Below, one piece after another: positions 3,882-49,241 of a stretch of DNA of 64,000 nt. The notes under the pieces were generated by a model, which saw nothing but the letters and a program-made list of their open reading frames with translations, did not search any database and was not told the DNA's origin. The position numbers and the translations under genes are program-made. This DNA is from an uncultured Desulfatibacillum sp. (lineage in GTDB: Bacteria > Desulfobacterota > Desulfobacteria > Desulfobacterales > SpSt-501), in assembly GCA_964573635.1 (NCBI GenBank), contig CAZNKG010000004.1:1352-65351 (forward strand), given 5' to 3'. Within the stretch, counting starts at the first letter, position 1, and the number at the start of each line of letters is the position of its first letter.

Positions 3882-3897
3882 CTAACAAAAAACTAAC
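3882..3897 (+). promoter_or_regulatory. Two CTAAC pentamers 11 bp apart (weak or uncertain Pho-box-like site)
   Basis: CTAAC occurs at 3882 and 3893. There are only two repeats, and they read away from the nearest downstream gene start at 3739 (minus strand). Confidence 0.25.
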
Positions 3898-4017
3898 GCG
3901 GCCGTCAGGCGGAAAAAGCGCCGCCGGAGGGTGCCGGGGCAGGCCGCGGGCGGAAGCGCCGCGCGGCGAGGCTCGGCTCGGCGGATGGAGCGGTCCGGGG
4001 GCGTTGCCAGGCCCCGG

Positions 4018-4674
4018 TCAATCCTGGGCGTGGCGGTAGATCTCGCCCTCGACGAGGTAGATCACCTCCTCGGCGATGTTGGTGGCGTGGTCGGAGAGGC
4101 GCTCGAGATGGCGCGAGATGAGCAGGAGGTTGATGTAGTAGCCCACCCGTTCCGGCAGCTCGCGGATCGCCTGCTTGAAGCGGTCGTAGGCCTCGTTCTT
4201 GTAACGGTCCACCTCGTCGTCCATGGTGATGACCTTGTAGGCCGCGTCGGCGTCGAGGTTCACGAGCGCATCGAGGCTCATCTTGAGCATGCGCTGGGCC
4301 TTCTCGCCCATTTCGGCATAGTCGAACAGGAAGGGCGCCGCCGGGCGCTTGGCGATCACCTGCACCCGCTGGGCGATGTTGACCGCCTGGTCGCCGATGC
4401 GCTCGAGCTCGTTGTTGATCTTGATCACGGCGATGATGAAGCGCAGGTCCACCGCCACCGGCTGATGCAGGGCGAGGACCTTGAGGCACTCCTCCTCGAT
4501 TTCGACCTCGAGGTCGTCGATCTCGGCGTCCTTGCGGATGATCTCCGCCGCGAGCTCCCCGTCCCGCTGCTCGACGGCCTTGATCGACTGCCGCACGAGA
4601 TCCTCCACCACGGACCCCAGGGTGAGCAGGCGCTTCTTGATGTTCTCGAGCTCTCGGCGGAAGTGCTTCGTCAT
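4018..4674 (-). CDS. phoU: Phosphate signalling/transport regulator PhoU
   Basis: [17 protein letters not shown]... contains two PhoU-type repeats ([13 protein letters not shown] and [14 protein letters not shown]). GGGGAGGAG lies 8 nt upstream of the ATG at 4674. The upstream ATG at 4701 was rejected because its extension has poor composition. Confidence 0.93.
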
Positions 4675-4755
4675 GACCCGGTCTCCTCCCCATGGACGCA
4701 TGGCCGGCGGATGGCCGGCCGCAGCGCGGCGGCTTTTTAAGGATCACTTTTCAAG

Positions 4756-4793
4756 GTTAGCACGTCGTGAAGAAAAAGTTAAGAATCGGTTAG
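4756..4793 (-). promoter_or_regulatory. Candidate Pho box serving phoU (four phased repeats)
   Basis: On the plus strand: GTTAG 4756, GTGAA 4767, GTTAA 4778, GTTAG 4789, each 11 bp apart. This reads CTAAC-type toward phoU, 82 nt upstream of its ATG. Confidence 0.6.
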
Positions 4794-4810
4794 ATAAAAC
4801 TCACGCGATT

Positions 4811-4837
4811 CTAACCTCGCCCACATACCCGCCTAAG
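4811..4837 (+). promoter_or_regulatory. Candidate Pho box serving the phn C-P lyase operon
   Basis: CTAAC 4811, CACAT 4822 (degenerate) and CTAAG 4833, in 11-bp phase, lie 58 nt upstream of the ATG at 4895. Confidence 0.5.
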
Positions 4838-4894
4838 ACCGATGCCCGAAAACCGGGATGGTCGGCCGGGAGCCTCCGGCCGGCGGAAACCGAG

Positions 4895-15244: not shown

Positions 15245-15301
15245 GCGGCGGGCTCCTTGGGTTGGGGGTTGCTTCATCGGCCGCGATGCTAGCGGCCCCG
15301 G

Positions 15302-15328
15302 ATTAGCGTTCGATTAGGCGTCGATGCG
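15302..15328 (-). promoter_or_regulatory. Candidate Pho box plus -10 element for phnCDE
   Basis: Plus strand: ATTAG 15302, ATTAG 15313, ATGCG 15324, in 11-bp phase. Reading toward phnC these are CTAAT repeats, followed after 8 nt by TAGCAT (plus-strand coordinates 15286-15291). Confidence 0.6.
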
Positions 15329-16877: not shown

Positions 16878-16932
16878 CTCACCGAAAACGAACCCGATCC
16901 TCATCACGCGCTAACACTACCAGGAAGATAAT
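16878..16932 (+). promoter_or_regulatory. Candidate Pho box (four repeats) plus -10 element GATAAT for the 17063-22318 operon
   Basis: CTCAC 16878, CGAAC 16889, CTCAT 16900 and CTAAC 16911 are each 11 bp apart. GATAAT at 16927-16932 follows 9 nt after the extended last repeat (CTAACAC, ending 16917). The site lies at the edge of an AT-rich island (16921-16972). Confidence 0.55.
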
Positions 16933-17935: not shown

Positions 17936-17962
17936 CTAACCAAATCCTAATCGAAACCTAAC
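17936..17962 (+). promoter_or_regulatory. Three phased CTAAC-type repeats upstream of the P2-type ATPase (possible internal Pho box)
   Basis: CTAAC 17936, CTAAT 17947 and CTAAC 17958, 128 nt upstream of the GTG at 18090. No convincing -10 hexamer was seen downstream. Confidence 0.4.
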
Positions 17963-18089
17963 CTCCATCACCGACAAGTTGCGGGTTTGCTTCCGCCGCC
18001 GGCTGCGGCGCCGCCTTGCCCGCTGGCGTGGGCTTCCGGGCGGCCGCCGCGCGACACGGCTTGCGCGGCGCGGGAAAAAGGCGGGTATC

Positions 18090-23227: not shown

Positions 23228-23321
23228 CGCCCCTCTCGTCCGGCCGGGGCGGCGCACCGCGGCCGGTTCTCCGGCTGCGGCGGCCGCTCGCCTGTGTCGG
23301 GCGCGATGATGACCCCGGCGT

Positions 23322-23359
23322 GTGAGAATCGGACTAGGCGCGGGTTAGAAGGCGGTTCG
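23322..23359 (-). promoter_or_regulatory. Candidate Pho box upstream of the zinc-ribbon gene
   Basis: Plus strand: GTGAG 23322, ACTAG 23333, GTTAG 23344, GTTCG 23355, in 11-bp phase. They read CTnAC-type toward the minus-strand gene. Confidence 0.45.
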
Positions 23360-23651: not shown

Positions 23652-23747
23652 GCCCCCCCCCTTTTTTCGGTTGCCGCCCCCGTCGCCCGCCCGCCGGGGG
23701 CGGCAGCGGTCTTTCACGGTCGGCCAAGGAATGGATAAATGCGGATT

Positions 23748-23774
23748 GTTAGGCTTTTATTAGGATTCGGTTCA
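23748..23774 (-). promoter_or_regulatory. Candidate Pho box upstream of the 23361-23651 gene
   Basis: Plus strand: GTTAG 23748, ATTAG 23759, GTTCA 23770, in 11-bp phase, 97 nt upstream of the minus-strand ATG at 23651. Confidence 0.45.
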
Positions 23775-28652: not shown

Positions 28653-28719
28653 CGGCGGTCCACCTCCTGGCAGGTCGTGATGTTGAAAGGCCAGGCTACC
28701 CGCCGATTTATAGGCTCCG

Positions 28720-28746
28720 ATTAGCATCGATTTAGTTTTCGGTTCA
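28720..28746 (-). promoter_or_regulatory. Candidate Pho box for the OlsF-like gene
   Basis: Plus strand: ATTAG 28720, TTTAG 28731, GTTCA 28742, in 11-bp phase, 68 nt upstream of the minus-strand ATG. TATAAA/TAGCCT-type hexamers lie proximal to it. Confidence 0.5.
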
Positions 28747-28786
28747 GCCGTCTCTTTTTTCGGCGTCGTCAATATTTAGTGCTATC

Positions 28787-28818
28787 TTAATCCGCACCTA
28801 ACAGCATATGGGTCTAAT
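28787..28818 (+). promoter_or_regulatory. Candidate two-repeat Pho box plus -10 element TCTAAT for the PHP-domain gene
   Basis: TTAAT 28787 and CTAAC 28798 are 11 bp apart. TCTAAT at 28813-28818 follows 8 nt after the extended repeat (CTAACAG, ending 28804). The ATG is at 28864. Confidence 0.4.
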
Positions 28819-28863
28819 GTCGGCATGCATGCCAGCATCGAACGCTGCGACACGGGGGAGACG

Positions 28864-33647: not shown

Positions 33648-36053
33648 TCAATCCGGCTCGATCCGCACCATCCCCGCCCCGCCGTCCACGGTGACCCGCG
33701 CGCCCTCCGGGATGAGGCGCGTCGCCCGGCGCACGCCCACGACCGAGGGGATGCCGAGCTCGCGCGCCACGATGGAGCAGTGGTTGAGCAGCCCGCCCTC
33801 CTCCATCACGATCGCGCCGATCACGCTCAGGATCGGGGTCCAGCCGGGGTCGGTGTGCCGGGCCACGACGACGTCCCCCGGGCGGATGCGGGCGCTCGCC
33901 GGGTCGGTCACGATCACCGCCCGCCCGCTCGCCCGGCCGGCGCTTGTCCCGATGCCCGCGAGCACGGTCCCCTGCTCGGGGAAATCGAACTCGGGACGGC
34001 CGTCGACCCAGAACGTGGACGGCGCAACCGGCTTCTGAAAGCGGGCCTGCCGCCGGGCGGCGGTCCGTTCGGCCTCCTCCCGGGACGCTTTCCCCTCCAC
34101 GAGCGCCTCGATCTCCTCGGGCTTGAGGAAGAAGACCAGCGCTCCCAGCTGAAGGCGCCCCCCCAGGGCGAGGAGGTCGAGGCGGATCCGGTAGAGCACC
34201 TCGTCCATCAGGAAGCGCAGCTCCTCCCTCAGGTCCAAAAACCGCCGCGCCGTGCGCGCGAGCAGGCGCAGAAGCGGCCGGAAGCGCACCCGCCCGGCGG
34301 CGCCCGCCGGGGCCGCAGCGGCCTGCGGGCCGGCGGCGGCGCCGGAGCCCTGGGGGTGGCGCACCAGCGATTTGAGGATCGCCAAGACCTCCTCGGGCGA
34401 CTCCGCCCAGCGCGGGACGAGCAGGCTGCGGTGCCGCGCGCGGCAGCCGAAGCACGCCAGAAACCGCTCGAGCTCCGCGTCAAGCCACTCCGGGAGCCGG
34501 CCGGCGGGCTCCGCCGGCGGATCTGAGCCGAAGCGCTCCGCAAGCTTCCCGTCCCGACGGATGCGCGCCGCCGTGTCGCGAAACCAGCGCTCGATCCGCA
34601 GGGTGACGTTGTCGCCGCCGCCCCCGATGAGGGCGAGAAACTCGCCGCCGCTCATCCCGAGCCGCTCGGTCGCCACCCCCGCGAGCAGCGCGGCGCTCGC
34701 GTTGGCGTGGAAGTAGGGCCACTGGTTGTTCGCCTGCAGCCGCCGCAGCGTCTCGAGGTTCTCCTTGAGCCGCGAAAAAAGCTCGCCCGCCCCGGCGCCT
34801 TCCCGCGGCCGCGCGGGGCCTGGCAGCCGCTCGCGCAGGCCGGCGATCGCGGCCGGGGCGCGGCGCAGGCAGAGAAACGGGACCGCGCCGGGCTCGGAAA
34901 GCGGCAGCCGCAGGATCCCCAAGACGAGGCGCGCGAGCTCCGCGGGCCGCGGGCCGGCGATCTCGCCGATCGGCGCCGCCGCCGGCAGGAGCGTCTCGAG
35001 GTGGCGCAGCCTGAGGCCGCGGGGGATCCGGGCGATCACCTGCCGGATGCCTTCGACGTTCACGTAGAGGTAGCCGTCGATCACCGCGAGCGCCGGCCGC
35101 ACCGGGACGAGCCCGACCTTGCGGGATATCGCGGAGAGATCGAAGGCCGGAGCGTGGGCGAGCATCACGGCGGCCATGAAGGGCTCCAGGCGGTCGGCCC
35201 AGAGGTCGTCGGCGATCTTGCGCGTCCAGATCCCCGGCGGCGGCAGCTCGTCGTCGGCCGCCAGCGCCGTGATGGGCCGGACCTGGAGCAGCCACAGGTC
35301 GCGGCGCGGACCGACGGCCCATTCGATGTCGAGGGCGGCCCGGTCGTGGTCCGCCTCCAAGCGCCGCAGCAGCGCGGCGATTTCGAACCAGGGGGTCTCC
35401 GCCTCGAGCCGCGCGCCGGCGCGGGAGCGGGGGCGGCTTTCGATTTCGATCCGGCCCCGGCCGTTCAGCCGCGCGCGGCAGGGGGTCCGCCGGCCGCTCA
35501 CGAGGCCCTCCCCCGGGCCGTGGACCGCCTCGATCACCATTTCGTCGGCCGCCGGGCGGAGGGGGTTTTTGCTGAAAGCGACGCCGGCGATCCGCGCGGG
35601 CACCATCTGCTGGAGAATGACGGCGAGAAGCGGGGTCTGCGCCTCGGCCCCGGGGGTCGCCGCGGCCCGGAGGTAGCTTCTGACGGTCTCCGAGGAGGCG
35701 CTCTCCCAGCACGCCTCGACCCGCGCGAGGAGCTCCGCCTCGGTGGCGACCCGCAGAAAGGTTCGGTACTGGCCGGCAAAGCTGAGATCGCCCAGGTCCT
35801 CGCGCACGGCGGAGGAGCGGACGGAGAGGCCGCGGCCGAGGTCGAGGCGGTGCGCGGCCGCGAGGACCTCCGCGCGCAGTCCGTCGGCCCAGGTCCCGGC
35901 GACGAGATAATGGCGGTGGGCGGCCGTCGTGATCGCCCGGGCCGCCGGCACGGGGAACCCGCGGGCGGACGCCCGGGCCAGGTGGAAAAACTTCATTCCG
36001 ACGAGCTGCGGGTCTGCGGCTCGCGGATCGGTGAACGCGGCGACAAACGCCAT
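33648..36053 (-). CDS. PEP-utilising-enzyme family protein (PPDK_N-type ATP-grasp plus C-terminal swivel phosphohistidine domain, no TIM-barrel domain)
   Basis: GAGGAGG lies 6 nt upstream of the ATG. The C-terminus GTSAGRASGRAVIV...ARHTDPGWTPILSVIGAIVMEEGGLLNHCSIVARELGIPSV is the mobile His domain. The N-terminus resembles the PEP/pyruvate-binding ATP-grasp domain. Confidence 0.75.
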   Translation of the reverse strand: MAFVAAFTDPRAADPQLVGMKFFHLARASARGFPVPAARAITTAAHRHYLVAGTWADGLRAEVLAAAHRLDLGRGLSVRSSAVREDLGDLSFAGQYRTFLRVATEAELLARVEACWESASSETVRSYLRAAATPGAEAQTPLLAVILQQMVPARIAGVAFSKNPLRPAADEMVIEAVHGPGEGLVSGRRTPCRARLNGRGRIEIESRPRSRAGARLEAETPWFEIAALLRRLEADHDRAALDIEWAVGPRRDLWLLQVRPITALAADDELPPPGIWTRKIADDLWADRLEPFMAAVMLAHAPAFDLSAISRKVGLVPVRPALAVIDGYLYVNVEGIRQVIARIPRGLRLRHLETLLPAAAPIGEIAGPRPAELARLVLGILRLPLSEPGAVPFLCLRRAPAAIAGLRERLPGPARPREGAGAGELFSRLKENLETLRRLQANNQWPYFHANASAALLAGVATERLGMSGGEFLALIGGGGDNVTLRIERWFRDTAARIRRDGKLAERFGSDPPAEPAGRLPEWLDAELERFLACFGCRARHRSLLVPRWAESPEEVLAILKSLVRHPQGSGAAAGPQAAAAPAGAAGRVRFRPLLRLLARTARRFLDLREELRFLMDEVLYRIRLDLLALGGRLQLGALVFFLKPEEIEALVEGKASREEAERTAARRQARFQKPVAPSTFWVDGRPEFDFPEQGTVLAGIGTSAGRASGRAVIVTDPASARIRPGDVVVARHTDPGWTPILSVIGAIVMEEGGLLNHCSIVARELGIPSVVGVRRATRLIPEGARVTVDGGAGMVRIEPD

Positions 36054-36168
36054 CGGCGCCTCCTCAACCCTTGCATGCTCCCCCGCCGGTGTTTGCCGCG
36101 CGCTAATTTTCGGTTAGTTTTCGCCGGCGCGGGCCGACCGCCGGCCGGCCGGCCGGGGGTCACGATCA

Positions 36169-36195
36169 TTTAATGCGGCGCTCACACCCACCGAA
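36169..36195 (+). promoter_or_regulatory. Candidate Pho-box-like repeats upstream of the small Cys-rich gene
   Basis: TTAAT 36169, CTCAC 36180 and CGAAC 36191, in 11-bp phase, 45 nt upstream of the ATG at 36240. Confidence 0.35.
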
Positions 36196-36239
36196 CACGG
36201 CGGCGGCAGAGTCGGCCGACTTACCGAAGGAGGGATGCC

Positions 36240-36473
36240 ATGACACGCTTGCGCCGCATCAATCCCTGCCGGTCGTGCGTGCTGATCGACGCCGACAAGA
36301 ACAACGCCACCTGCCTGAACTGCCGGAGGCGGGTCGCCTACGTCGACGGCCTGCAAAGCGATCTGAGCTTCTGCGCCGGCCGGTCGGCCGAGGCCCCGCC
36401 GCTCGCCGGATGGGGGGGGATCCCGCGTCGGGCGGGGTGCGCCGCGTGCCCGCCGGACGGCCCCTTCGATTGA
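36240..36473 (+). CDS. Small Cys-rich (zinc-ribbon-like) hypothetical protein, 77 aa
   Basis: A strong RBS, AAGGAGGG, lies 5 nt upstream. The protein has a CRSC...CLNC pair (CxxC-X14-CxxC). Confidence 0.6.
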   Translation: MTRLRRINPCRSCVLIDADKNNATCLNCRRRVAYVDGLQSDLSFCAGRSAEAPPLAGWGGIPRRAGCAACPPDGPFD

Positions 36474-36540: not shown

Positions 36541-36594
36541 CTAACGCAAGGTTAACCGCTTGCTAACATAGACCTAACAATTCGGCCATACCTT
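36541..36594 (+). promoter_or_regulatory. Candidate Pho box (four repeats) plus -10-like TACCTT for pstC
   Basis: CTAAC 36541, TTAAC 36552, CTAAC 36563 and CTAAC 36574, in exact 11-bp phase. TAnnnT lies at 36589-36594. The ATG is at 36636. Confidence 0.7.
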
Positions 36595-36635: not shown

Positions 36636-38027
36636 ATGGCGCCCTTCAATCTTCTGATCGTTCTATTGGGCCTTTCCGCGGCGGCCTACTTTTTCGGCCG
36701 GCGCCAGGCCCTCGCCGTGGATGCCGTGCGGGGCGCCGCCGTGCGGCTGCACTCGCGCCCCACCTACCACGGCGCCCTCGTCGCGCTGTGGTGCGCGATC
36801 CCGGCGCTGCTCGTTCTCGGGCTGTGGCTGGCGCTCGAGACCCAGGTCATCACCCACCTGGTGGTCGGCGACCTGCCGGAGCCGTTCCGCTCCCTGCCCC
36901 GGGACCGCCTGGGCCTGGTCGTGAACGACATCCGCAACCTGGAGAGCGGCAACGTCGCCGCCGGCCAGGCGGTCGAGCCCGCCATGCGGGCGGCGGCCGA
37001 CCACTACCGCCGGCTGCGGGCGGTGAGCCATGCGGCCCTCGCCGTGGTGACGATCGGGCTGGCGGCCGGCGCGGCGCTTTTCGTGCGCCGCCTGATCACC
37101 CCCGCCCTGCGCGCCCGCAACCAGGTCGAGGGCATCTTCCGGGTGATCCTGGTCGCCTGCTCGACGCTCGCCATCTTCACGACCCTCGGGATCATCCTCT
37201 CGGTCCTCTACGAGGCGATCCTCTTCTTCCGGATCATCCCGCCCGGCGATTTCCTCCTCGGCCTCGACTGGAGCCCGCAGATGGCCATCCGCGCCGACCA
37301 GGTGGGCTCCTCCGGCGCCTTCGGCGCGGTGCCGGTCTTTTTGGGGACCGCCCTGATTTCGGCCATCGCCATGGTCGTCGCCGTCCCGATCGGGCTGATG
37401 TCGGCGATCTACCTCTCGGAGTACGCGAGCAAGCGCTTCCGGGCGGTCGCCAAGCCGCTGATCGAGGTGCTCGCGGGGATCCCCACCGTGGTCTACGGCT
37501 TTTTCGCCGCCCTGACGGTGGCGCCCTTCCTGCGGGCGGCGGGCGGCCTTCTCGGGCTGGACGTCGCCTCCGAGAGCGCGCTCGCCGCGGGCCTCGTCAT
37601 GGGGATCATGATCATTCCCTTCGTCTCCTCCCTCTCCGACGACTTCATCAACGCCGTGCCCCAGTCGCTGCGCGACGGCGCCTACAGCCTCGGGGCCACG
37701 AAGTCGGAGACCATCCGGCAGGTGATTCTGCCGGCGGCGATCCCCGGGATCATCGGCGGGGTCCTGCTCGCCGTATCGCGCGCCATCGGCGAAACCATGA
37801 TCGTCGTCATGGCGGCCGGGCTCTCGGCCAACCTCACCGTGAACCCCCTGGAAACCGTCACCACCGTCACGGTCCAGATCGTCACCCTGCTCGTGGGCGA
37901 CCAGGAGTTCGACAGCCCGAAGACGCTCGCCGCCTTCGCGCTGGGGCTGGTCCTGTTCGTCGTCACCCTGTGCCTCAACATCATCGCGCTCGTCGTCGTG
38001 CGCCGCTATCGGGAGCAGTATGAGTAA
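36636..38027 (+). CDS. pstC: Phosphate ABC transporter permease PstC (long form)
   Basis: GGGAG RBS. Polytopic permease with the EAA-type loop SLRDGAYSLGATKSETI, followed by pstA. Confidence 0.9.
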   Translation: MAPFNLLIVLLGLSAAAYFFGRRQALAVDAVRGAAVRLHSRPTYHGALVALWCAIPALLVLGLWLALETQVITHLVVGDLPEPFRSLPRDRLGLVVNDIRNLESGNVAAGQAVEPAMRAAADHYRRLRAVSHAALAVVTIGLAAGAALFVRRLITPALRARNQVEGIFRVILVACSTLAIFTTLGIILSVLYEAILFFRIIPPGDFLLGLDWSPQMAIRADQVGSSGAFGAVPVFLGTALISAIAMVVAVPIGLMSAIYLSEYASKRFRAVAKPLIEVLAGIPTVVYGFFAALTVAPFLRAAGGLLGLDVASESALAAGLVMGIMIIPFVSSLSDDFINAVPQSLRDGAYSLGATKSETIRQVILPAAIPGIIGGVLLAVSRAIGETMIVVMAAGLSANLTVNPLETVTTVTVQIVTLLVGDQEFDSPKTLAAFALGLVLFVVTLCLNIIALVVVRRYREQYE

Positions 38028-39312
38028 CGCCGCGCCTCCGCCCGCCGCCCCCGCCCGGCGGACCATCGACATCGTCAACCGGAGCCTGGCCCGCCGCTAC
38101 CGCGCCGAGCGCCGTTTCCGCTTCTACGGGGCCACGGCCATCGTGGCAAGCATCGCCTTCCTCGCCATCCTCTTCGCGAGCATCATCGGCAACGGCGCCA
38201 CCGCCTTCCGCCAGACCTTCATCCGGCTGCCGGTCTTTTTCGACCCCGACGTGCTGAAGCGCGACACCCTCGCCCAGGCGGACTACGCCGCGCTCGTCCG
38301 CGCCGCCCTCGCCGCCCAGTTCCCCGAGGTCGAGGGCCGGCAGGAGAAGCGGCTGCTGAACGCGCTCGTCAGCGGCGGCGCGGCGTACGCGCTCCGGGAC
38401 ATCGCGCTCGCCGACCCGGCCGTCGTCGGGGCGACCCGGGAGGTGTGGCTGGCGGCCGACGACGACATCGACATGTTCGTGAAGGGCCACTTCCCGCGCG
38501 AGCTGCCCGCAAGCGAGCGGCGCATCACCGACCAGCAGATCGCCTGGATCGACCGGCTGGCGGCGGAGGGGCGCCTGACGAAGCAGTTCAACACGACCTT
38601 CCTCACCGCCGGGGACTCGCGCGAGCCGGAGCTCGCCGGGATCTGGGGCGCGGTCGCCGGGTCCTTCTTCACCCTGGTGGTCACGCTCATCCTGTCGTTT
38701 CCGATCGGGGTCGCGGCCGCCGTCTATCTCGAGGAGTTCGCGAAGAAGAACCGCCTGACCGACCTGATCGAGGTCAACATCAACAACCTCGCCGCCGTGC
38801 CCTCCATCGTCTTCGGGCTCCTGGGGCTCGCGGTCTTCCTCAACTTCTTCGGGCTGCCGCGCTCCGCCCCGCTCGTCGGGGGACTCGTGCTCACCCTCAT
38901 GACGCTGCCGACCATCATCATCGCCAGCCGCTCCGCGCTCAAGTCGGTGCCGCCCTCGATCCGCGAGGCGGCGCTCGGGGTCGGCGCCTCCCAGATGCAG
39001 ATGGTCCTGCACCACGTGCTGCCGCTCGCGCTGCCCGGCATGTTGACCGGGACCATCATCGGGATGGCCCGGGCGCTCGGGGAGAGCGCCCCGCTGCTCA
39101 TGATCGGGATGGTCGCCTTCATCGTCGACATCCCCAAGGGCTTCACCGACCCGTCGACGGTGCTCCCGGTCCAGATCTACCTCTGGGCCGACAGCCCCGA
39201 GCGGGCCTTCGTCGAGCGCACCTCGGCGGCGATCATCGTGCTCCTCGGCTTTCTGCTGGTGATGAACGCCGGGGCCATCATCCTGCGCCGGAAATTCGAG
39301 CGGCGCTGGTAG
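38020..39312 (+). CDS. pstA: Phosphate ABC transporter permease PstA (long form)
   Basis: It overlaps pstC by 8 nt. It has the loop SIREAALGVGASQMQMV and the C-terminal motif typical of PstA. Confidence 0.9.
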   Translation: MSNAAPPPAAPARRTIDIVNRSLARRYRAERRFRFYGATAIVASIAFLAILFASIIGNGATAFRQTFIRLPVFFDPDVLKRDTLAQADYAALVRAALAAQFPEVEGRQEKRLLNALVSGGAAYALRDIALADPAVVGATREVWLAADDDIDMFVKGHFPRELPASERRITDQQIAWIDRLAAEGRLTKQFNTTFLTAGDSREPELAGIWGAVAGSFFTLVVTLILSFPIGVAAAVYLEEFAKKNRLTDLIEVNINNLAAVPSIVFGLLGLAVFLNFFGLPRSAPLVGGLVLTLMTLPTIIIASRSALKSVPPSIREAALGVGASQMQMVLHHVLPLALPGMLTGTIIGMARALGESAPLLMIGMVAFIVDIPKGFTDPSTVLPVQIYLWADSPERAFVERTSAAIIVLLGFLLVMNAGAIILRRKFERRW

Positions 39313-39340
39313 CCCCCGCGCGGCGGGGCCGGCGGGCGGC

Positions 39341-39394
39341 GAAACGAAAATCGAACACGGGGCTAACCATCGCCTCACACCCGCGGGCTAGGTT
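39341..39394 (+). promoter_or_regulatory. Candidate internal Pho box plus -10-like TAGGTT for pstS
   Basis: GAAAC 39341, CGAAC 39352, CTAAC 39363 and CTCAC 39374, in 11-bp phase. TAGGTT at 39389-39394 follows 8 nt after the extended repeat (CTCACAC, ending 39380). Confidence 0.55.
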
Positions 39395-39453
39395 GGCTTC
39401 GGGTTTCATCATCCGGGCCGACGGGCCCACACCAACCATTTAGGAGGATGGCA

Positions 39454-40506
39454 ATGAAGAAAACCGTGGTTTGGATGGCGGCCGCCGCGTTCCTCGCGGC
39501 CGCGGCCGGCACCGCAGCGGCCCAGCAGCGCGACGGGATCAGCATCGTCGGTTCGTCCACCGTCTACCCCTTCGCCACCGTGGTCGCCGAGAAATTCGGC
39601 AAGACCGGCGGCTTCAAGACCCCCAAGATCGAATCCACCGGCACCGGCGGCGGCTTCAAGCTCTTCTGCGGCGGGGTCGGGGTCGGGCACCCGGACATCA
39701 CCAACGCCTCGCGCGCCATCAAGGCGGGCGAGTTCGAGACCTGCCAGAAGAACGGCGTGACCGAGGTGATCGAGGTCAAGATCGGCTACGACGGCATCGT
39801 GATCGCCAACGCCAAGAAGGCCGCCCCGATCAAGCTCACGCGCAAGGAGATCTTCCTGGCGCTCGCCAAGGAGGTCCCGGACCCCGCGGACCCGGCCAAG
39901 CTGGTCCCCAACCCCTACAAGACCTGGAAGGCGATCAACCCGGCGCTGCCCGATGTCAAGATCGAGGTCCTCGGCCCGCCGCCGACCTCCGGCACCCGCG
40001 ACGCCTTCGTCGAGCTCGCCATGGAGACCGGGGCCGAGAAGATCGAGTCCCTCAAAGCGCTCAAATCGAGCGACGCCAAGGCCTTCCAGAAGGTCTTCGC
40101 CTCGATCCGCGAGGACGGGGCCTACATCGAGGCCGGCGAGAACGACAACCTGATCGTCCAGAAGCTCGTCGCCAACCCGAACGCCTTCGGCATCTTCGGC
40201 TTCAGCTTCCTCGACCAGAACGCCGACCGGATCCAGGGGGCGCTCGTCGAGGAGGCGCCGCCCACCTTCGAGAACATCGCCAGCGGCAAGTACCCCCTCT
40301 CCCGGCCGCTCTTCTTCTACGTGAAGAAGGCCCACGTGGGCGTCATCCCGGGGATCAAGGAGTACCTCGCGGAGTTCACCAGCGAGAAGGCCTGGGGCAA
40401 GGACGGCTACCTGAGCGAGAAGGGGCTGATCCCGCTGCCGGAGGCCGAGCGCAAGCAGGTCGCGCAGAACGTCGCCCAGATGAAGGTCCTGACCGAGGTG
40501 AAGTAG
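39454..40506 (+). CDS. pstS: Phosphate-binding protein PstS family (PBP_like_2)
   Basis: AGGAGG lies 6 nt upstream of the ATG at 39454. It has a signal peptide plus the [16 protein letters not shown] and SGTRD motifs. Confidence 0.9.
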
Positions 40507-40530
40507 CCGCACCCGACGGGATCCCGAGAC

Positions 40531-40567
40531 GCGGCGCGGGCCGGCCTCCGTGCGCGGCCCGCGCCGC
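40531..40567 (+). other. 13-bp GC stem-loop immediately after pstS
   Basis: GCGGCGCGGGCCG (40531-40543) pairs perfectly with CGGCCCGCGCCGC (40555-40567). The loop is 11 nt and no U-tract follows. Confidence 0.6.
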
Positions 40568-40604
40568 CATTCACCCATCCGAAACTACCCCTCGGGCGGA
40601 AATC

Positions 40605-41495
40605 ATGGTATCGTTGACGCGGATGAACGCAAAGGGGTTCGTGGGGACCATGCCGGAAGAAACCGCAGCGTCGACGTCGTCGGGGACGACCCGGGTGAGC
40701 CGCGACCTGCGCGAAACGGTCGGCCGCATCACGGTCGACAACCCGCGCATGACCTGCCGCGGCGTCAATGTCTGGTACGGCGACAAGCACGCGATCCGCA
40801 ACGTCTCGATCGACATCGGCCGCAACGAGGTGCTCGCCATGATCGGGCCGTCGGGCTGCGGCAAGTCGACCTTCATCCGCTGCCTGAACCGCATGAACGA
40901 CACGATCGACGGCTGCCGGGTCACGGGCGAGATCCTGCTCGACGGCGTCGACATCCACGGCCGGAACATCGACGTCGTGCCGCTGCGCGCCCAGGTCGGA
41001 ATGGTGTTCCAGAAGCCCAACCCCTTCCCCAAGTCGATCTACGAAAACGTGGCCTACGGGCCGCGCATCCACGGGCTCGCCCGGGGAAAAAGCGAGCTCG
41101 ACGAGATCGTCGAGACCTCGCTCATGAAAGCCGGGCTGTGGGAGGAGGTCAAGGACCGCCTGGACCAGCCCGGGACGGGGCTCTCCGGCGGCCAGCAGCA
41201 GCGCCTGTGCATCGCCCGGACGATCGCCGTCAACCCCGAGATCATCCTCATGGACGAGCCCTGCTCGGCGCTCGACCCGATCGCGACCTCGGTGATCGAG
41301 GACCTGATCTTCGAGCTGCGCGCGCAGTACTCCATCTGCATCGTCACCCACTCGATGCAGCAGGCCGCGCGCGTCTCCCAGCGCACGGCCTACTTCCACC
41401 TGGGCGACCTGATCGAGGTCGGCCCGACCGACCGGATCTTCACCAATCCCCGCCACGAGCTCACCCAGGACTACATCACCGGCCGCTTCGGCTGA
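40605..41495 (+). CDS. pstB: Phosphate ABC transporter ATPase PstB (start uncertain; ATG at 40650 also possible)
   Basis: [54 protein letters not shown] and ILMDEP. Confidence 0.9.
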
Positions 41496-41527: not shown

Positions 41528-43315
41528 TCAGTCCGGCGGGAGGCGATGCGGCAGGTGGATCGTGAACCGGCTCCCCTCGCCGAGGGCGCTCTCGACCGTG
41601 ACCCGGCCGCCGTGGGCCTGGGCGATGTGCTTGACGATGGCCAGGCCGAGCCCCGTTCCGCCGAGGACCCGGCTGCGCGCCGGGTCGACCCGGTAGAAGC
41701 GCTCGAAGATGCGGGGCAGGTGCTTCTTCTCGATGCCGATCCCGTGGTCTTCGACCTCGATTTGGATCTCGCGGCCCTGCGTGCGCGCGGTGATGCTGAC
41801 CGAGCGCTCCGGCTCGCTGTACTTGATCGCGTTGTCGAGGAGGTTCACGACGGCCTGCTCGAGGAGCAAGGGGTCGAGCATGGCCGCGAGCCCCTCCTCC
41901 ACGGCGAGCTCGATCGCGATCCGCTTCTCGTCGGCCTTCGGCCGGCAGATCTGCACCGCGTTCTGCAGGATCTCCTGCAGCCGCGCGCTCTCGCGCTTCA
42001 AGGCCCCGCCCTCGCTCTCGTTTTCGATGCGCGAGAGCATCAGCAGGTCCTCGATGATGGTGCTCAGGCGGCTGACGTGCTTGGCGATGATGCCGAGAAA
42101 CCGCGCGGCCTCGGCCGGCTCCTCGACCCCGCCCTGCTGCAGCGTCTCGACGAACCCGCGGATGGCCGTGAGCGGGGTGCGGATCTCGTGCGAAACGTTG
42201 GCAACGAAGTCGCGGCGCATGTTCTCCAGCCGGCGCAGCGGGGTGACGTCGGTGAAGACGATGAGCACCCCGATCGGCTCCGGCCCGACGGCGCAGAGCG
42301 GGGCGCTCTTGATGTTCAGGACCCGCTCCCCGCCGTGGTAGACGGTGACATCCTCCTCGAGGGGCACCAGGCTCTCCAGGCTGCGGGCGATGAACTTCTG
42401 GGCCGCGCGGTGGCGCACCGCCTCCGGAACGGACTTGCCGGTGGTGCGCGCGGCATCGATTTCCAACCAGCGCGCCGCGGCCGGGTTCATGCTGAGGATG
42501 CGCTCCTCGCGGCTCACGGCGATGACGCCCTCCTGCATGCTGGAGAGCACCGCCTCGAGCTGGTTGCGCTGGCTCGTCACCATGAGCATGCGGCTTTCGA
42601 GCTCGGCGGCCATGCGGTTCAGGGACTCGGCGAGCTCGGCGAGCTCGCGGGTCTCGGGAACCGGCAGCCGGTGCCCGAGCTCGCCGGCCGCAAAACGCGC
42701 GGCCCCCTGCTTGAGCTCCTCGACCCGCCGGCTGAACTGGCGCGAGATGACGAGGGTCACGACCAGCGCGAGCACCGCCAGGGCGAAGCCGACCACGAGA
42801 AGCTCGCGGCGCACGGAGGCGAGCTGCCGCTCGATGCGGGCGGTGGGGATGCCGGCGCGGATGACGGCGGGCGCGGGCGGCCCGCCGCGGGCCGGCACGG
42901 CCGCATACAGGGTCTGCCGCTGCAGGGTGCGGCTGAACCGAGCCGCCTGGCCGGCCCCGGTGGAGAAGGCGGCGGCCACCTCCGGCCGGCCGGCATGGTT
43001 CTCCATGTGGCGCGGGGTTTCGTGCGAGTCGCCGAGCACGGTGCCGTCGGCGGCGATCACGGTGAAGCGCGTGTCGGCGGCCTTGCCGGCGAGCTTGCAG
43101 GCCGCGTCGACGGCCGCGGCGTCGAGGGGGGCCAGGTGGGGGGCCACCTGCAGCTCGAGCAGGCGCGCCCGTTCGCTCAAGTCGCCGGCGAGCTGCTCGA
43201 CGAGAAAGCCCTCGAGCGACCGGTGCGCGTGCCAGCCGGCGGCGCCGAGGGCCCCCAGGGTGATCAGCAGGTACGAGGAAAGCAGGCGCCAGAAAAGCTT
43301 GCCGCGCTTGATCAT
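41528..43315 (-). CDS. phoR: Phosphate regulon sensor histidine kinase PhoR (TM-HAMP-PAS-HisKA-HATPase)
   Basis: The H-box is FVANVSHEIRTPLTAIRGF, with N/G boxes DNAIKYS and GTGLGLAIVKH. It lies immediately downstream of phoB. Confidence 0.85.
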   Translation of the reverse strand: MIKRGKLFWRLLSSYLLITLGALGAAGWHAHRSLEGFLVEQLAGDLSERARLLELQVAPHLAPLDAAAVDAACKLAGKAADTRFTVIAADGTVLGDSHETPRHMENHAGRPEVAAAFSTGAGQAARFSRTLQRQTLYAAVPARGGPPAPAVIRAGIPTARIERQLASVRRELLVVGFALAVLALVVTLVISRQFSRRVEELKQGAARFAAGELGHRLPVPETRELAELAESLNRMAAELESRMLMVTSQRNQLEAVLSSMQEGVIAVSREERILSMNPAAARWLEIDAARTTGKSVPEAVRHRAAQKFIARSLESLVPLEEDVTVYHGGERVLNIKSAPLCAVGPEPIGVLIVFTDVTPLRRLENMRRDFVANVSHEIRTPLTAIRGFVETLQQGGVEEPAEAARFLGIIAKHVSRLSTIIEDLLMLSRIENESEGGALKRESARLQEILQNAVQICRPKADEKRIAIELAVEEGLAAMLDPLLLEQAVVNLLDNAIKYSEPERSVSITARTQGREIQIEVEDHGIGIEKKHLPRIFERFYRVDPARSRVLGGTGLGLAIVKHIAQAHGGRVTVESALGEGSRFTIHLPHRLPPD

Positions 43316-43337: not shown

Positions 43338-44030
43338 TCACGGTCGCTCCTTGAAGCGGTAGCCGACGCCGCGCACGGTCTCGATGTAGGCGCCGTGGGC
43401 CTTGAGCTTCTTGCGCAGGCCGACGACCTGGACGTCGACGCTGCGGTCGGTGACGGGGTAGTCGCTGCCGCGGACGGCGTCGACGATCTGGGAGCGGGTG
43501 AAGACCCATCCGGGCCGGCGCGCGAGCACCCAGAGCAGCTGGAACTCCGTGTAGGTCAGGTCGACGGGCTCGCCGCCCGCCGTGACGCTGCGGCGGCCGG
43601 GGTGGATCTCGAGCTCGTGGATGCGCAGCGTCTTGGTCTCGTCGACCGGCTCCCGCGCCCGGCGGCGCAGCACGGCCTTCACCCGCGCCGAGAGGACCCG
43701 CGGGCTGAACGGCTTGGTGAGGTAATCGTCGGCCCCGAGCTCGAGGCCCGTGACGATGTCCGCGTCCTCGCCCCGGGCGGTCAGCATGACGATCGGCGTC
43801 GACTGGGTGCGCGCGTCTTTCTTGAGCGCCTTGGCGACCTCCAGGCCGTCCACCCCGGGCAGCATGAGATCGAGCACGACGAGGTCGAAACTCTCGGCGC
43901 GGGCGCTCTTGAGCGCCTGTTCGCCGCTCGCCGCCGTAGAGACCTGGTAGCCCTCGCGCGTCAGGTGGAAGCGCACCAGCTCGAGGATGTCCTCCTCGTC
44001 GTCGACCACGAGGATCCGCTCTTTCGCCAT
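43338..44030 (-). CDS. phoB: OmpR/PhoB-family response regulator PhoB
   Basis: MAKERILVVDDEEDI...DLVVLDLMLPGVDG...TARGE, plus a winged-helix C-terminus (YIETVRGVGYRF). GGAG lies 8 nt upstream of the ATG at 44030. Confidence 0.88.
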   Translation of the reverse strand: MAKERILVVDDEEDILELVRFHLTREGYQVSTAASGEQALKSARAESFDLVVLDLMLPGVDGLEVAKALKKDARTQSTPIVMLTARGEDADIVTGLELGADDYLTKPFSPRVLSARVKAVLRRRAREPVDETKTLRIHELEIHPGRRSVTAGGEPVDLTYTEFQLLWVLARRPGWVFTRSQIVDAVRGSDYPVTDRSVDVQVVGLRKKLKAHGAYIETVRGVGYRFKERP

Positions 44031-44101
44031 ATCTCGCACTCCGTCAAGGGGGATGGCCGGCTGCGCCGTCCACATCGCCGCGCGGAAATTATTGGCGAGC
44101 C

Positions 44102-44139
44102 GTTCTTCCGGAGTTAGGGCCGGATTAGATTTCGGTTAG
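44102..44139 (-). promoter_or_regulatory. Candidate Pho box for phoBR (autoregulation), overlapping the last codons of fdhD
   Basis: Plus strand: GTTCT 44102, GTTAG 44113, ATTAG 44124, GTTAG 44135, in 11-bp phase. Toward phoB it reads CTAAC-CTAAT-CTAAC-AGAAC, followed by AATAAT (plus-strand coordinates 44088-44093). Confidence 0.65.
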
Positions 44140-44934
44140 CCCGAAGCGCCGCGGGCCGCAGAAGACGCAGACCCCCCCCTCCGGCTCGAGGCAGGCGACC
44201 CCCATGTTGAGCCCGGCGGCGAGCGCGACCGCGAGCTCCGTGGGGCGCGAGACCGCGAGAATCGCCGCGATCCGCGCGCGGGCCGCCTTCTGCACGAGCT
44301 CGTAGCTCACCCGCGAGGAGAGGCACAGCAGCACCGCCCGGGGAAGGCTTCCGGCCATGAGCGCCCGGCCGACGGCCTTGTCGAGGGCGTTGTGGCGGCC
44401 GATGTCCTCGGCGAGCGCGAGCAGCCCCCCGCCCGCGTCGAACAGCGCGGCGGCGTGGGCGGCGCGCGTCAGCTCCCGCAGCCGCTGGCGGCCGGCCATC
44501 TCCTCCATCGCGGTTAGGGCCGCGGGCAGCGCGACGGCGGCGCCGTCCGGAACCGGGGTGAGCAGCTGCTCGAGGTCGCGCACGAGCTCCTTGCCGCAGA
44601 TCCCGCAGCTCGACTGGCTGATGTAGTTGCGCCGCTCGAGGATCGCCCCGCTCGCCGCCCGGCGTTCGGGGGTGAGCGTCACGGTGACGACGTTGGGGTT
44701 CTCGTCGTCGCACAGGCCGATGGCGACCGTGTCCGCAAGGCGGTCGATGACCCCCTCCCCCAGACAGAAGCCGGCCACATGGGCGATCTCCTCGCCCGGG
44801 GTCCGCATGACGACGGCGTAGGGGCGCCCCTCGACCCGGATGGCGAGCGGCTCCTCCGCCAAAAGGGCCATCGGCTGCCGGGAGGCCCCGGATGCTTTCC
44901 AGCGGATGACCGGCCGTTCGATTGAGCTCTCCAT
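44125..44934 (-). CDS. fdhD: Formate dehydrogenase accessory sulfurtransferase FdhD
   Basis: SSCGICG and DIGRHNALDK motifs. 269 aa from the ATG at 44934. Confidence 0.88.
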   Translation of the reverse strand: MESSIERPVIRWKASGASRQPMALLAEEPLAIRVEGRPYAVVMRTPGEEIAHVAGFCLGEGVIDRLADTVAIGLCDDENPNVVTVTLTPERRAASGAILERRNYISQSSCGICGKELVRDLEQLLTPVPDGAAVALPAALTAMEEMAGRQRLRELTRAAHAAALFDAGGGLLALAEDIGRHNALDKAVGRALMAGSLPRAVLLCLSSRVSYELVQKAARARIAAILAVSRPTELAVALAAGLNMGVACLEPEGGVCVFCGPRRFGLTEI

Positions 44935-45063
44935 GCAGCGACCCCCCCTGCGCGGCCTCGAGGATTCGGCCGCCGGCGGGCGCCGAGGCATTGCGTCCAC
45001 CGCCCGGGTGTGGAATAACATAACAACTTTCCGTGCATCTTTCCATCCAGGGAGGAACGCCCC

Positions 45064-45948
45064 ATGGAACCGGAGAAAGACTGGATCGCCAACGCCTATG
45101 CCGGGATGTCCCGGCGGCAGTTCCTGGCGCGCATGTCGGCCGCCGGCGCGGCGGCCCTGGCCGGCTTCGCCGCGGCCGCCAGCCCCGTCGCGGGCGAGAT
45201 CATCACGACCCCCGCCGACGGCCTGGAGGCGCTCGCGGGGCAGGCCCCCGCCGGCGGTTTCGCGCTGCCGCTTTATGCCGCGTGGCCGGCGGGCGCCGGG
45301 AAGCACCCGGTCGTGCTCGTCATCCCGGAGATCTTCGGCATGCACGCGCACATCCAGGACGTCGTGCGCCGCTTCGCCAAGGCCGGCTACTTCGCGGTCA
45401 CCCACGAGCCCTACGCGCGGCAGGGGGGCGTCCAGCACCTGACCGACATCCAGGCCGTGCTCAAAATCGCCAACGCGCTTCCCGACGACCAGGCGCTTTC
45501 CGACCTGGAGGCGGTCTGCGCCTGGGCCGCGGCGCACCCCGCCGCCCGGGCCGAGCGCCTCGGGGTGACGGGGTTCTGCCGCGGCGGCCTCTACACGCTG
45601 CTCTTTGCCGCCCGCAGCCCCGCCGTCAAGGCCGCCGTCGCCTGGTACGGCCAGATCAAGCCGGCGATCACCCCCGGCATCCGCACGGCGGGACCGCTCG
45701 AGGTGGCCGCGAAGATCGCCGCCCCGGTGCTCGGGCTCTACGGCGGAGCGGACCAGGGGATCCCCGCCGCGGACGCCAAGGAGATGGAGGCCGCCCTGCG
45801 GGCCGCGGGCCGGACCGCCGAGTTCGTGATCTACCCGGATGCGCCGCATGCCTTCTATGCGGACTACCGCCCGAGCTACCGCGCCGAAGCCGCGGCCGAC
45901 GCCTGGCGGCGCTGCCTCGCCTGGTTCGACCGGTATCTGAAGGCGTAG
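45064..45948 (+). CDS. Dienelactone hydrolase-family protein with a Tat-type signal
   Basis: AGGGAGG RBS. It has the SRRQFLARMSAAGAAALAG twin-arginine signal, the GFCRGG nucleophile elbow and a C-terminal YPDAPHAF. Confidence 0.85.
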   Translation: MEPEKDWIANAYAGMSRRQFLARMSAAGAAALAGFAAAASPVAGEIITTPADGLEALAGQAPAGGFALPLYAAWPAGAGKHPVVLVIPEIFGMHAHIQDVVRRFAKAGYFAVTHEPYARQGGVQHLTDIQAVLKIANALPDDQALSDLEAVCAWAAAHPAARAERLGVTGFCRGGLYTLLFAARSPAVKAAVAWYGQIKPAITPGIRTAGPLEVAAKIAAPVLGLYGGADQGIPAADAKEMEAALRAAGRTAEFVIYPDAPHAFYADYRPSYRAEAAADAWRRCLAWFDRYLKA

Positions 45949-45964
45949 GGCCCCGCCCGCGGCG

Positions 45965-48436: not shown

Positions 48437-48465
48437 CGGCTCCGGAGACCCTGCGGCGCGCCCGC

Positions 48466-48978
48466 TCAGGGGCGCTCGCCGAGCGACAGGATGTAGTGCA
48501 CGACGGCCAGGCGGTCGGCGGCCGTGACGGTTGAGTAGAGCGGCGGCTGCCGGCCGCCCGGGATCCCGTAGCTCACCGTCGTGAACAGCGCCTCCGGCGC
48601 CTTGAGCTGGACCGCGGCGCTGCGCAGATCGGTCGGCAGCGGCATGAAGCTCTGGCCGACGGTTCCCCGGCCGTCGTGGGCGCTCCCGTGGCACTGGGCG
48701 CAGAAGGTGAAGTAGACCGCCCGGCCGCGGGCGATCCCCTCCGCGGCCGCACCGGCCGCCGGGGCGGCGGCGGTCGGGTCGGCGCGGTAGAGGGCCTCGC
48801 CGCCGCCGACCGGCACGACCCCCTCGGGCATGAGCCTGAGCGGCTCCTCGTGCGGCTTGACCGCCGGGGTCTCGCGCATGCGGCCGTAGCGGAAGTTGTT
48901 GTCGTAGAACATCAGGGCGTGGTAGGCCGCGAGCAGGAGGGCGGCCGCCGCCGCCGCGATGAGCAGCCCGCGTTTCAT
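48466..48978 (-). CDS. Membrane-anchored monohaem cytochrome c (ActE-like position and function uncertain)
   Basis: N-terminal TM segment, a single CAQCH motif and a distal Met region. Confidence 0.75.
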   Translation of the reverse strand: MKRGLLIAAAAAALLLAAYHALMFYDNNFRYGRMRETPAVKPHEEPLRLMPEGVVPVGGGEALYRADPTAAAPAAGAAAEGIARGRAVYFTFCAQCHGSAHDGRGTVGQSFMPLPTDLRSAAVQLKAPEALFTTVSYGIPGGRQPPLYSTVTAADRLAVVHYILSLGERP

Positions 48979-49241
48979 TCGGCCCCCCGGTTCCCCAGCA
49001 CCTGGAGGGGATAGGCCTCGGCCCCGGGTGCGCCGCGGACGTGCTGCGGATGGGGCACCGGCGGGTAGAGGGCGTAGGGCCCCTCGCCCGGGGTGTCGGC
49101 CACGGGCCGGTAGTCCCAGTCGGGCTGGCCGAGGTCGCCGATCAGGGTATAGGCGAGGAATCCCTGGAAGAAGACGATGCCGACCATGGCCGCGACCAGC
49201 AGCCAGGTCCGCAGGGCCGATGCCTGCTGTTCCGGGTGCAT
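48975..49241 (-). CDS. Small single-TM membrane protein, hypothetical
   Basis: ATGA overlap with the downstream cytochrome c gene. TM segment WLLVAAMVGIVFFQGFLAYTLI. Confidence 0.55.
   Translation of the reverse strand: MHPEQQASALRTWLLVAAMVGIVFFQGFLAYTLIGDLGQPDWDYRPVADTPGEGPYALYPPVPHPQHVRGAPGAEAYPLQVLGNRGAE

Follow-up and report, generated by a model that had tools for sequence, protein, structure and literature searches.

We analysed a 64,000-nucleotide stretch of DNA from an uncultured Desulfatibacillum sp. (contig CAZNKG010000004.1; hereafter the window), in which a phosphate-transport operon is preceded by a run of regularly spaced CTAAC pentamers. Positions 36541-36584 of the plus strand read CTAAC GCAAGG TTAAC CGCTTG CTAAC ATAGAC CTAAC AATTCG, with pentamer starts exactly 11 nt apart. 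The operon downstream (36636-41495, plus strand) has the order pstC-pstA, a predicted internal operator and promoter, then pstS-pstB, an order common to Desulfobacterales-like relatives. A PhoR-type kinase and an OmpR/PhoB-family response regulator adjoin it, and this synteny is kept in the related loci L020, L022, L046 and L086-L089. The core features of the window are listed below; scores are those of a position weight matrix (PWM) of the repeat unit, and offsets are counted from the first base of the unit proximal to the gene.

36541..36584, plus strand: candidate pstC operator; units CTAAC, TTAAC, CTAAC, CTAAC, that is, two putative Pho boxes; PWM 35.9 (scanned start 36552)
36589..36594, plus strand: predicted pstC -10, TACCTT, offset 16
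36636-38027, plus strand: pstC (TIGR02138, 279 bits, above cutoff)
38020-39312, plus strand: pstA (TIGR00974, 223 bits, above cutoff)
39352..39384, plus strand: candidate pstS operator; CGAAC, CTAAC, CTCAC; PWM 21.9
39389..39394, plus strand: predicted pstS -10, TAGGTT, offset 16
39448-40506, plus strand: pstS (PstS family 152.7 bits, below the 206.6-bit cutoff; PBP_like_2, 352 aa)
40605-41495, plus strand: pstB (ABC_tran protein, 296 aa)
41528-43315, minus strand: PhoR/PnpS-like histidine kinase (PnpS model NF046044, 404 bits, above the cutoff of 400; PhoR model, 317 bits)
43338-44030, minus strand: PhoB-like response regulator (230 aa; Response_reg and Trans_reg_C domains, OmpR family)
44086..44091, minus strand: predicted phoB -10, TAATTT, offset 16 from the fourth unit, AGAAC
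44096..44139, minus strand: candidate phoB operator; CTAAC, CTAAT, CTAAC, AGAAC; PWM 29.2
4018..4701, minus strand: phoU (TIGR02135, 208.5 bits, above cutoff)
4750..4793, minus strand: candidate phoU operator; CTAAC, TTAAC, TTCAC, CTAAC; -10-like GATCCT at 4745-4740; PWM 30.0
4800..4843, plus strand: candidate operator of the carbon-phosphorus (C-P) lyase operon; CTCAC, CTAAC, then the weaker CACAT and CTAAG; TACCCG at 4826-4831; PWM 17.9
~4858/5493 to 11467, plus strand, opposite phoU: C-P lyase operon, with PhnI at 6595-7701
12431-15277, minus strand: phnC, phnD and phnE, from family searches
15296..15317, minus strand: candidate phnCDE operator, CTAAT-N6-CTAAT; predicted -10 TAGCAT at 15291-15286; PWM 20.0 (scanned start 15328)
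15337-16644, divergent from phnC: ArsA-like ATPase

A first-pass annotation, made from the letters of the window, had placed the four pentamers at 36541, 36552, 36563 and 36574, 11 nt apart, with CTAACAA ending at 36580, TACCTT at 36589-36594 and the pstC ATG at 36636, and all of these letters are where it put them. Just before the ATG at 36636 lies a GGGAG ribosome-binding site. Family searches agree with the identities that it had given to pstC, pstA, pstS, phoU, the PhoB-like regulator, phnCDE, PhnI/C-P lyase and pstB; one correction is that the gene divergent from phnC is the ArsA-like ATPase and not C-P lyase. According to gene calls of the Joint Genome Institute (JGI), PstC and PstA are long-form permeases of 463 and 430 aa with N-terminal DUF3708 and DUF3333 domains. 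For the regulator, an exact protein match exists for the 230-aa start and none for a 245-aa start.

The repeat pattern is confirmed and is highly non-random. The window as a whole has a GC content of ~71% and its intergenic DNA a slightly lower 68.6%. Exact CTAAC/GTTAG occurs 20 times in the 64 kb, approximately the number predicted by a first-order Markov model; it is the placement of the pentamers that is non-random. Eighteen of the 20 fall in 4049 nt of intergenic DNA and two in 44.8 kb of coding sequence, as divided by our own gene map of positions 1-48436, which was built from Pfam and NCBIfam matches and from the JGI calls on a 540-kb metagenome contig that includes the window. The first-pass count of 18 intergenic pentamers was thus exact. 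Its expectation of one or two per strand was also about right, because 2000 dinucleotide-preserving shuffles of the intergenic segments gave 2.58 +/- 1.58 pentamers (maximum 9).

The phasing is sharper still. At an offset of 11 nt, 10 YTAAY pairs were observed against a shuffle mean of 0.02, and 15 YT[ACT]AY pairs against 0.18; offset 22 held four and seven such pairs, respectively, and each remaining offset within 6-24 held 0-2. In an unbiased test over all 512 strand-collapsed 5-mers, CTAAC ranked first for self-pairing at offsets 11 and 22 (5 pairs against 0.006 expected), and the 5-mers that ranked after it all overlap CTAAC. Arrays were delimited by laying out the 11-nt register around each pentamer and then scanning with the unit PWM, which was used only to rank and extend them. 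This yielded around 15 arrays of 2-4 units each, including those that the first-pass annotation had described as reading toward pstS, phoB, phoU, phnC, C-P lyase and several non-classical genes. Every array scoring at least 17.9 is intergenic, and all but one, at 3882, are directed at the adjacent gene. The unit core CTAAC degenerates through CTAAT, TTAAC and CTCAC to nGAAC, or, in degenerate notation, to YT[ACT]AY and beyond that to nnAAC; its positions 2 (T) and 4 (A) are the most informative, and the first base is C in 25 of 30 units. As an internal negative control, the PWM scan found no phased array scoring 17.9 or more beyond 44.1 kb, where the window (44100-64000) encodes FdhD, a dienelactone-hydrolase-like protein, a copper P-type ATPase, and cbb3-type oxidase and alternative complex III genes. 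Neither Rfam families nor tRNA genes were found when the window was scanned for them.

The arrays stand in a fixed relation to predicted promoters. By eye, a -10-like hexamer begins at offset 16 before pstC (TACCTT), pstS (TAGGTT), phoB (TAATTT), phoU (GATCCT), phnC (TAGCAT) and a gene for a phosphoenolpyruvate (PEP)-utilising enzyme (GAGCAT), and again after the unit at 28798 (TCTAAT); after the unit at 16911, before a DUF5132 gene, GATAAT lies at offset 17. The hexamers that the first-pass annotation had pointed out besides that of pstC (GATAAT 16927, TAGGTT 39389, TCTAAT 28813 and, on the minus strand, TAGCAT 15291-15286) are all present at those positions. When the proximal unit was picked automatically, nAnnnT peaked at offset 16 (4/12 arrays in the window and 14/39 in relatives, with 0-6 at other offsets). 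No -35/-10 pair or full sigma-70 promoter was detected around pstC. Relative to predicted starts, the arrays lie at the -35 position, a fixed short distance upstream of the -10, as a Pho box does; they also comprise at least two direct repeats with a period of ~11 bp and are kept at orthologous promoters of relatives. In Escherichia coli, the box ends 10 bp upstream of a TAN3T/A -10 (PMC1906773), and setting CTAAC on the GTCAT of CTGTCAT, a register that we infer, would reproduce that 10-bp gap. A reading of AAC as the -35 element of an extracytoplasmic-function (ECF) sigma factor was rejected because no more than 10 nt separate the end of the pentamer from the -10 and because in-phase copies of it lie further upstream.

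Searching species-representative genomes with PstC returned no close genome. The best matches (73-80% identity) are metagenome-assembled genomes (MAGs) labelled Desulfobacterales, Desulfobacteraceae or delta proteobacterium, several of which, at 44-65% GC, carry CTAAC-N6 arrays directly upstream of pstC. Across L001, L002, L003, L020, L022 and L046, arrays recur upstream of pstC, at the pstA-pstS junction, upstream of phoB and upstream of phoU. The junction array is present in L001, L020, L022 and L046 and also in L086-L088, the phoB array in L020, and the phoU array in L046 and L022. Metagenomes contain many regulator homologues of 80-88% identity, and their NCBI names are again those of Desulfobacterales or Deltaproteobacteria MAGs. 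Four contigs with the same synteny (L086-L089; 61-66% GC, PhoB identity 80-86%) allowed a promoter alignment by MAFFT, in which one case of a one-unit slip was corrected by eye. Both pstC and phoB retain four in-phase units and the PEP-utilising gene retains three, whereas spacers and flanks have diverged; in the pstS array, which is less conserved, between one and three units can be recognised. The -10 offset at pstC carries TAGTTT (L086), TACATT (L087) or TAGCAT (L089), that at phoB carries TAAATT in L086 and AAATAAATTG or AAATAATTTG in L087-L089, and the PEP-utilising array retains nAnnnT at offset 16 in L086-L088. No arrays were found in ~39 kb of unrelated flanking genes of these four contigs, which served as a further negative control.

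The motif was also sought independently of the genes, by scanning metagenome contigs for exact CTAAC-N6-CTAAC-N6-CTAAC (at least 120 loci). Among the matches listed, short contigs and low-GC tandem repeats predominate. Three of those listed (L110, L137 and L179) have the triple array directly upstream of a pst operon, compared with about 0.02 expected by chance on a rough, uncomputed estimate; two of these operons have a different, short-PstC organisation, and none of the three contigs carries a regulator gene. The motif is therefore not confined to the clade of the window. It occurs in MAGs labelled Desulfobacterales, Desulfobulbaceae, Desulfocapsa and deltaproteobacterium, over a range of 44-71% GC. 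The first-pass annotation had proposed a lineage-specific Pho box: the Pho box is supported by the direct 11-bp repeats, the -35 position, the Pho targets, the conservation and the helix covariation described next, but 'lineage-specific' was an overstatement, given several MAG groups and three metagenome contigs with differently organised pst operons. Also among the matches listed, five contigs (L126, L131, L156, L181 and L122; 42-52% GC) contain the exact triple pattern 8-21 times each in long tandem repeats, which are probably unrelated satellite-like or repeat DNA.

The regulator has an altered recognition helix, RSVDVQVVGLRKKL, which reads VDVQVVGLR and not the canonical VDVHIRRLR; of the 120 closest homologues, 119 carry RSVDVQVVGLR. 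A sequence of E. coli PhoB was checked against PDB chains 1b00 and 1gxp and then aligned with the window protein, which is 45% identical to it. The substitutions include T194 to S, H198 to Q, R200 to V and R201 to G, whereas R203 and the wing residue R219 are kept. In the PhoB-DNA structure of Blanco et al. from 2002, R201 reportedly reads the guanine of TGTCA; as a hypothesis, loss of this arginine would agree with the change from G to C in the CTAAC/GTCAT register. Helix and array could be compared at the 37 of 80 pst loci that also carry a PhoB homologue. Phased YTAAY pairs number 5, 4 and 3 at L020, L046 and L022, the three loci with VDVQ[IV][VF]GLRKKL helices (their regulators are 53-70% identical to that of the window), compared with 0-1 at the 34 loci with canonical VDVHIRRLRKAL (VDVHI/VRRLRKAL-type) helices.

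Most probably, the phased repeats serve as Pho boxes for a PhoB/PhoP-type regulator that has diverged, acting in the manner of the sites of E. coli PhoB, Bacillus PhoP and cyanobacterial SphR by the classical -35-replacing activation of genes for starvation of inorganic phosphate (Pi). Arrays precede the whole core Pho set, including the operon of the regulator itself: pstCA, pstSB, phoBR, phoU, phnCDE and C-P lyase. The repeat pattern is shown here together with its statistics, geometry, conservation and covariation with the helix; from these we infer which protein binds, that its binding activates and that expression responds to Pi. Under Pi limitation, the PhoR/PnpS-like kinase (41528-43315) would phosphorylate the adjacent regulator (43338-44030), which would bind the arrays head-to-tail with one winged-helix domain per unit. 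Because the arrays would fill the -35 position of -10-only promoters, with the -10 beginning at offset 16, the bound regulator would recruit RNA polymerase and activate transcription. Predicted core targets are pstCA, pstSB, phoBR, phoU, phnCDE and the C-P lyase operon, and the array at phoB would give autoregulation. The altered core, relative to E. coli CTGTCAT, appears to go with the altered helix (H198Q, R200V, R201G). Peripheral targets may include genes for phosphorus-free lipids (of the OlsF-like and glycosyltransferase kinds), a PhoH-like gene, a P-type ATPase with metK, the PEP-utilising enzyme and small unassigned genes. PhoH is a classical Pho-regulon protein. When Pi is limiting, mutants of the sulfate reducer Desulfovibrio alaskensis in OlsF and in Agt-type glycosyltransferase are impaired (PMC5193443). 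Together, these two points give the peripheral targets biological sense.

Several observations weigh against this reading. The regulator scores 240.1 bits against the 296.2-bit cutoff of the PhoB model TIGR02154, 196 against 471 for the PhoB equivalog NF007546 and 230 against 270 for a Bacteroidetes PhoB model, and it is about equally similar to MtrA, RegX3 and E. coli PhoB. Its orthology thus rests on gene context, and we name it a PhoB/PhoP-family phosphate regulator on that basis and not a PhoB equivalog. The helix-array covariation comprises three independent loci plus the window's own clade. Moreover, SphR keeps the DNA-contact residues of E. coli and yet binds CTTAACCT (Su et al., PMC1906773), so that helix substitutions need not be the cause of a changed core. 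A convincing -10 is absent at the P-type ATPase array and at the arrays at 4811, 3882 and 36170, and the 3882 array points away from the neighbouring Kre9/TIG-domain gene, toward the 3' end of phoU. The PWM scan is circular in that the matrix was trained on the very sites it scored, and most of the exact triple arrays among the matches listed are not near recognisable Pho genes.

It is also conceivable, although unlikely, that the arrays serve a different OmpR-family regulator or another factor encoded elsewhere, with the PhoB-like neighbour recognising something else. The sub-cutoff equivalog scores leave room for such a factor, as does the fact that only 64 kb of the genome is visible, and half-sites of the OmpR family are broadly alike (WalR binds TGTWAH-N5 repeats). 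Yet the arrays span the whole canonical Pho regulon and the regulator's own promoter in an arrangement kept in relatives, the motif comes and goes with the type of helix in the regulator linked to pst, and the partner kinase passes the cutoff of the phosphate-sensing PnpS model. That the same protein binds but mainly represses, by unphosphorylated occlusion or through roadblock arrays, is very improbable: PhoP-type regulators are known to repress some promoters (PMC2275107), and the 3882 array is reversed and lacks a -10, but the proximal unit keeps a constant spacing from the -10, upstream of it, and does not cover it, no -35 was found around pstC, and the targets are Pi-starvation-induced in every studied system. 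An origin other than as a protein site (a side effect of AT-richer intergenic sequence, of phased bending or UP-like elements, or of a small dispersed repeat) is scarcely credible, for although intergenic GC is 68.6% against 71% for the window and many exact-triple metagenome matches among those listed are multi-copy tandem repeats on low-GC contigs, shuffled intergenic DNA gives 0.02-0.18 phased pairs where 10-15 are observed, the pentamers persist from 44 to 71% GC while spacers and flanks change, and the arrays are consistently oriented and absent from unrelated intergenic regions of relatives.

Besides the core set, arrays precede a number of other genes in the window, and one array is reversed:

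33648-36053, minus strand: gene for the PEP-utilising enzyme (PPDK_N, Rph_4th and PEP-utilizers domains; resembles PEP synthase or rifampicin phosphotransferase)
36085..36117, minus strand: weaker array before the PEP-utilising enzyme gene; CTAAC, TTAGC, CAAAC; GAGCAT at 36080-36075; PWM 14.6
36170-36202, plus strand: weak array before a 77-aa open reading frame (ORF); TTAAT, CTCAC, CGAAC
16889..16921, plus strand: candidate operator of the DUF5132 gene; CGAAC, CTCAT, CTAAC; predicted -10 GATAAT at 16927-16932 (offset 17); PWM 23.7
17063-17335, plus strand: DUF5132 gene
17936..17968, plus strand: array before the P-type ATPase and metK; CTAAC, CTAAT, CTAAC; top score, PWM 39.8; -10 poor
17979-21143, plus strand: Ca/Mg-type P-type ATPase
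21140-22318, plus strand: metK
23316..23348, minus strand: array before a 201-aa ORF (22305-22910); CTAAC, CTAGT, CTCAC; CATCAT at offset 16; PWM 21.0
23742..23774, minus strand: array before a 118-aa ORF (23361-23717); TGAAC, CTAAT, CTAAC; PWM 32.4
28714..28746, minus strand: weaker array before an OlsF-like gene; TGAAC, CTAAA, CTAAT, then TATAAAT; PWM 16.1
28776..28808, plus strand: array before metallohydrolase/GT4, PhoH and GT1 genes; (TTAGT), TTAAT, CTAAC; predicted -10 TCTAAT at 28813-28818; PWM 24.8
3882..3903, plus strand: reversed array, CTAAC-A6-CTAAC, two perfect units; PWM 19.3

The PEP-utilising gene stands divergently beside pstC in the window and in L086 (18080-20470), L087 (from 19191) and L088 (from 18927), and the enzyme may be a conserved Pho-regulon member of unassigned role. 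Between it and the pstC operator lies the small ORF (36240-36473, plus strand; 77 aa, no Pfam match), whose position is kept in L086 (17474-17704, 76 aa), L087 (18747-18965, 72 aa) and L088 (18336-18668, 110 aa). Three of the aligned contigs have a stand-alone PhnH-domain gene just downstream of phoR, which a CTAAC array of its own precedes (L087 12862-12925, L088 12551-12895 and L089 12521-12584); the window has no such gene at that position.

The top-scoring array precedes a P-type ATPase and metK, which are not classical Pho genes, and two P-type ATPases are among the genes identified around arrays by family searches and JGI calls. Neither the 201-aa nor the 118-aa ORF has a Pfam domain. 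Between the predicted GATAAT and the DUF5132 gene, ~130 nt (16933-17062, plus strand) are unusually AT-rich and contain a 12-codon mini-ORF (ATG 16955 to TAG 16993) whose stop overlaps a lone GTTAG at 16989; no Rfam match was found in this segment, which could encode a leader peptide or a small RNA. Further on, a divergent region (28653-28863) holds two arrays back to back, at 28746-28714 on the minus strand and 28776-28808 on the plus strand. The former faces an OlsF-like acyltransferase/GNAT fusion gene (start likely at 28652), and the latter precedes a metallohydrolase-GT4 gene (true start likely ATG 28864), a PIN-PhoH gene and a GT1 glycosyltransferase gene; the whole looks like a Pi-controlled lipid-remodelling block. 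Leaderless starts considered at 28825 and, for phnC, at 15277 were dropped in favour of in-frame downstream ATGs with good ribosome-binding sites at 28864 and 15244. The reversed array at 3882 sits between the end of phoU (4018) and the start of the Kre9/TIG-domain gene (1658-3739, minus strand), with no -10 after it on the plus strand; it may act as a roadblock or an antisense promoter, or be a site in reverse orientation.

Taken together, these data yield a model of the operators in the phosphate-starvation regulon that can be put to use for an abundant uncultured high-GC clade labelled 'Desulfobacterales' in NCBI. With it, the Pi-responsive genes of these MAGs could be predicted from their sequence alone, including those for phosphonate use, phosphorus-free lipid synthesis and unassigned functions, and the joint change of helix and half-site offers a concrete hypothesis on how specificity is encoded in the OmpR/PhoB family. 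No new regulatory principle is involved: this would be an ordinary switch with an undescribed local spelling. The parts most worth attention are the covariation of helix and operator and the unusual conserved regulon members. More tentatively, and with somewhat less than even confidence, we propose that the Q/V/G helix (E. coli positions 198, 200 and 201) marks an unrecognised specificity class of the PhoB family, widespread in uncultured Desulfobacterota-like lineages, which lost the arginine said to read guanine and co-evolved with a CTAAC operator. If so, it would be a natural case of regulator-operator recoding, with an unusual conserved regulon comprising the PEP-utilising enzyme, P-type ATPases with metK and the OlsF/glycosyltransferase lipid-remodelling block.

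The consensus of Pho boxes varies between lineages (PMC4415409), and we compared the arrays with those described. The literature searched yielded no description of a CTAAC Pho box in this group and, besides that of Desulfovibrio vulgaris, no other experimentally derived Pho box for a deltaproteobacterium or sulfate reducer. The D. vulgaris PhoB (DVU1083) box, obtained by chip analysis of affinity-purified DNA (DAP-chip), is (c/t)GT(n)AC, a 6-bp repeat with a 4-bp spacer (PMC3333781). It resembles the present arrays as a direct repeat upstream of pst and phoU and differs in its core and its 10-bp spacing; the window contains no GTnAC pairs phased at offset 10 or 11. More generally, no phased pairs of the E. 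coli, Streptomyces, D. vulgaris, Bacillus or exact cyanobacterial words were found in the window.

In E. coli, one or two 22-bp boxes made of 11-bp-period direct repeats (CTGTCAT-N4-CTGTCAT) replace the -35 ahead of a TAnnnT -10 (PMC4415409, PMC1906773). The window shares with E. coli PhoB the 11-bp period, the apparent -35 replacement, the placement at pst, phoU, phoBR and phn, the predicted self-regulation of phoB and most of the protein fold. It differs in having CTAAC in place of TGTCA, frequent three-unit arrays and the H198Q, R200V and R201G helix. The first-pass view that the core departs from the E. coli consensus holds, as none of the 13 TGTCA occurrences in the window forms a phased pair.

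The recognition helix of Bacillus subtilis PhoP is VDVHISHLR, which differs from the VDVQVVGLR found here. Its core site, described by Liu & Hulett in 1998, reportedly consists of TT[ATC]ACA repeats with a period of ~11 bp. This is the site to which our consensus comes closest, [CT]TAAC[AC] being nearly TTAACA; the kinase also has the HAMP-PAS architecture of Gram-positive PhoR, and JGI names many of the regulator homologues 'PhoP'. Unlike in Bacillus, exact TT[ATC]ACA occurs only three times in the window and never in phase.

The box of Synechocystis SphR comprises at least three tandem 8-bp CTTAACCT units with a 3-bp linker (PMC1906773). The arrays differ from it in that the first core base is mostly C and not T (the exact word CTTAAC occurs once in the window), in belonging to an unrelated lineage and in a helix without the E. 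coli contact residues. They share with it the TAAC(C) core, the 11-bp period and arrays of three or more units, with TTAAC units at 36552 and 4782. Judged by its letters, the core is not exotic: TAAC with an 11-bp period is common to both.

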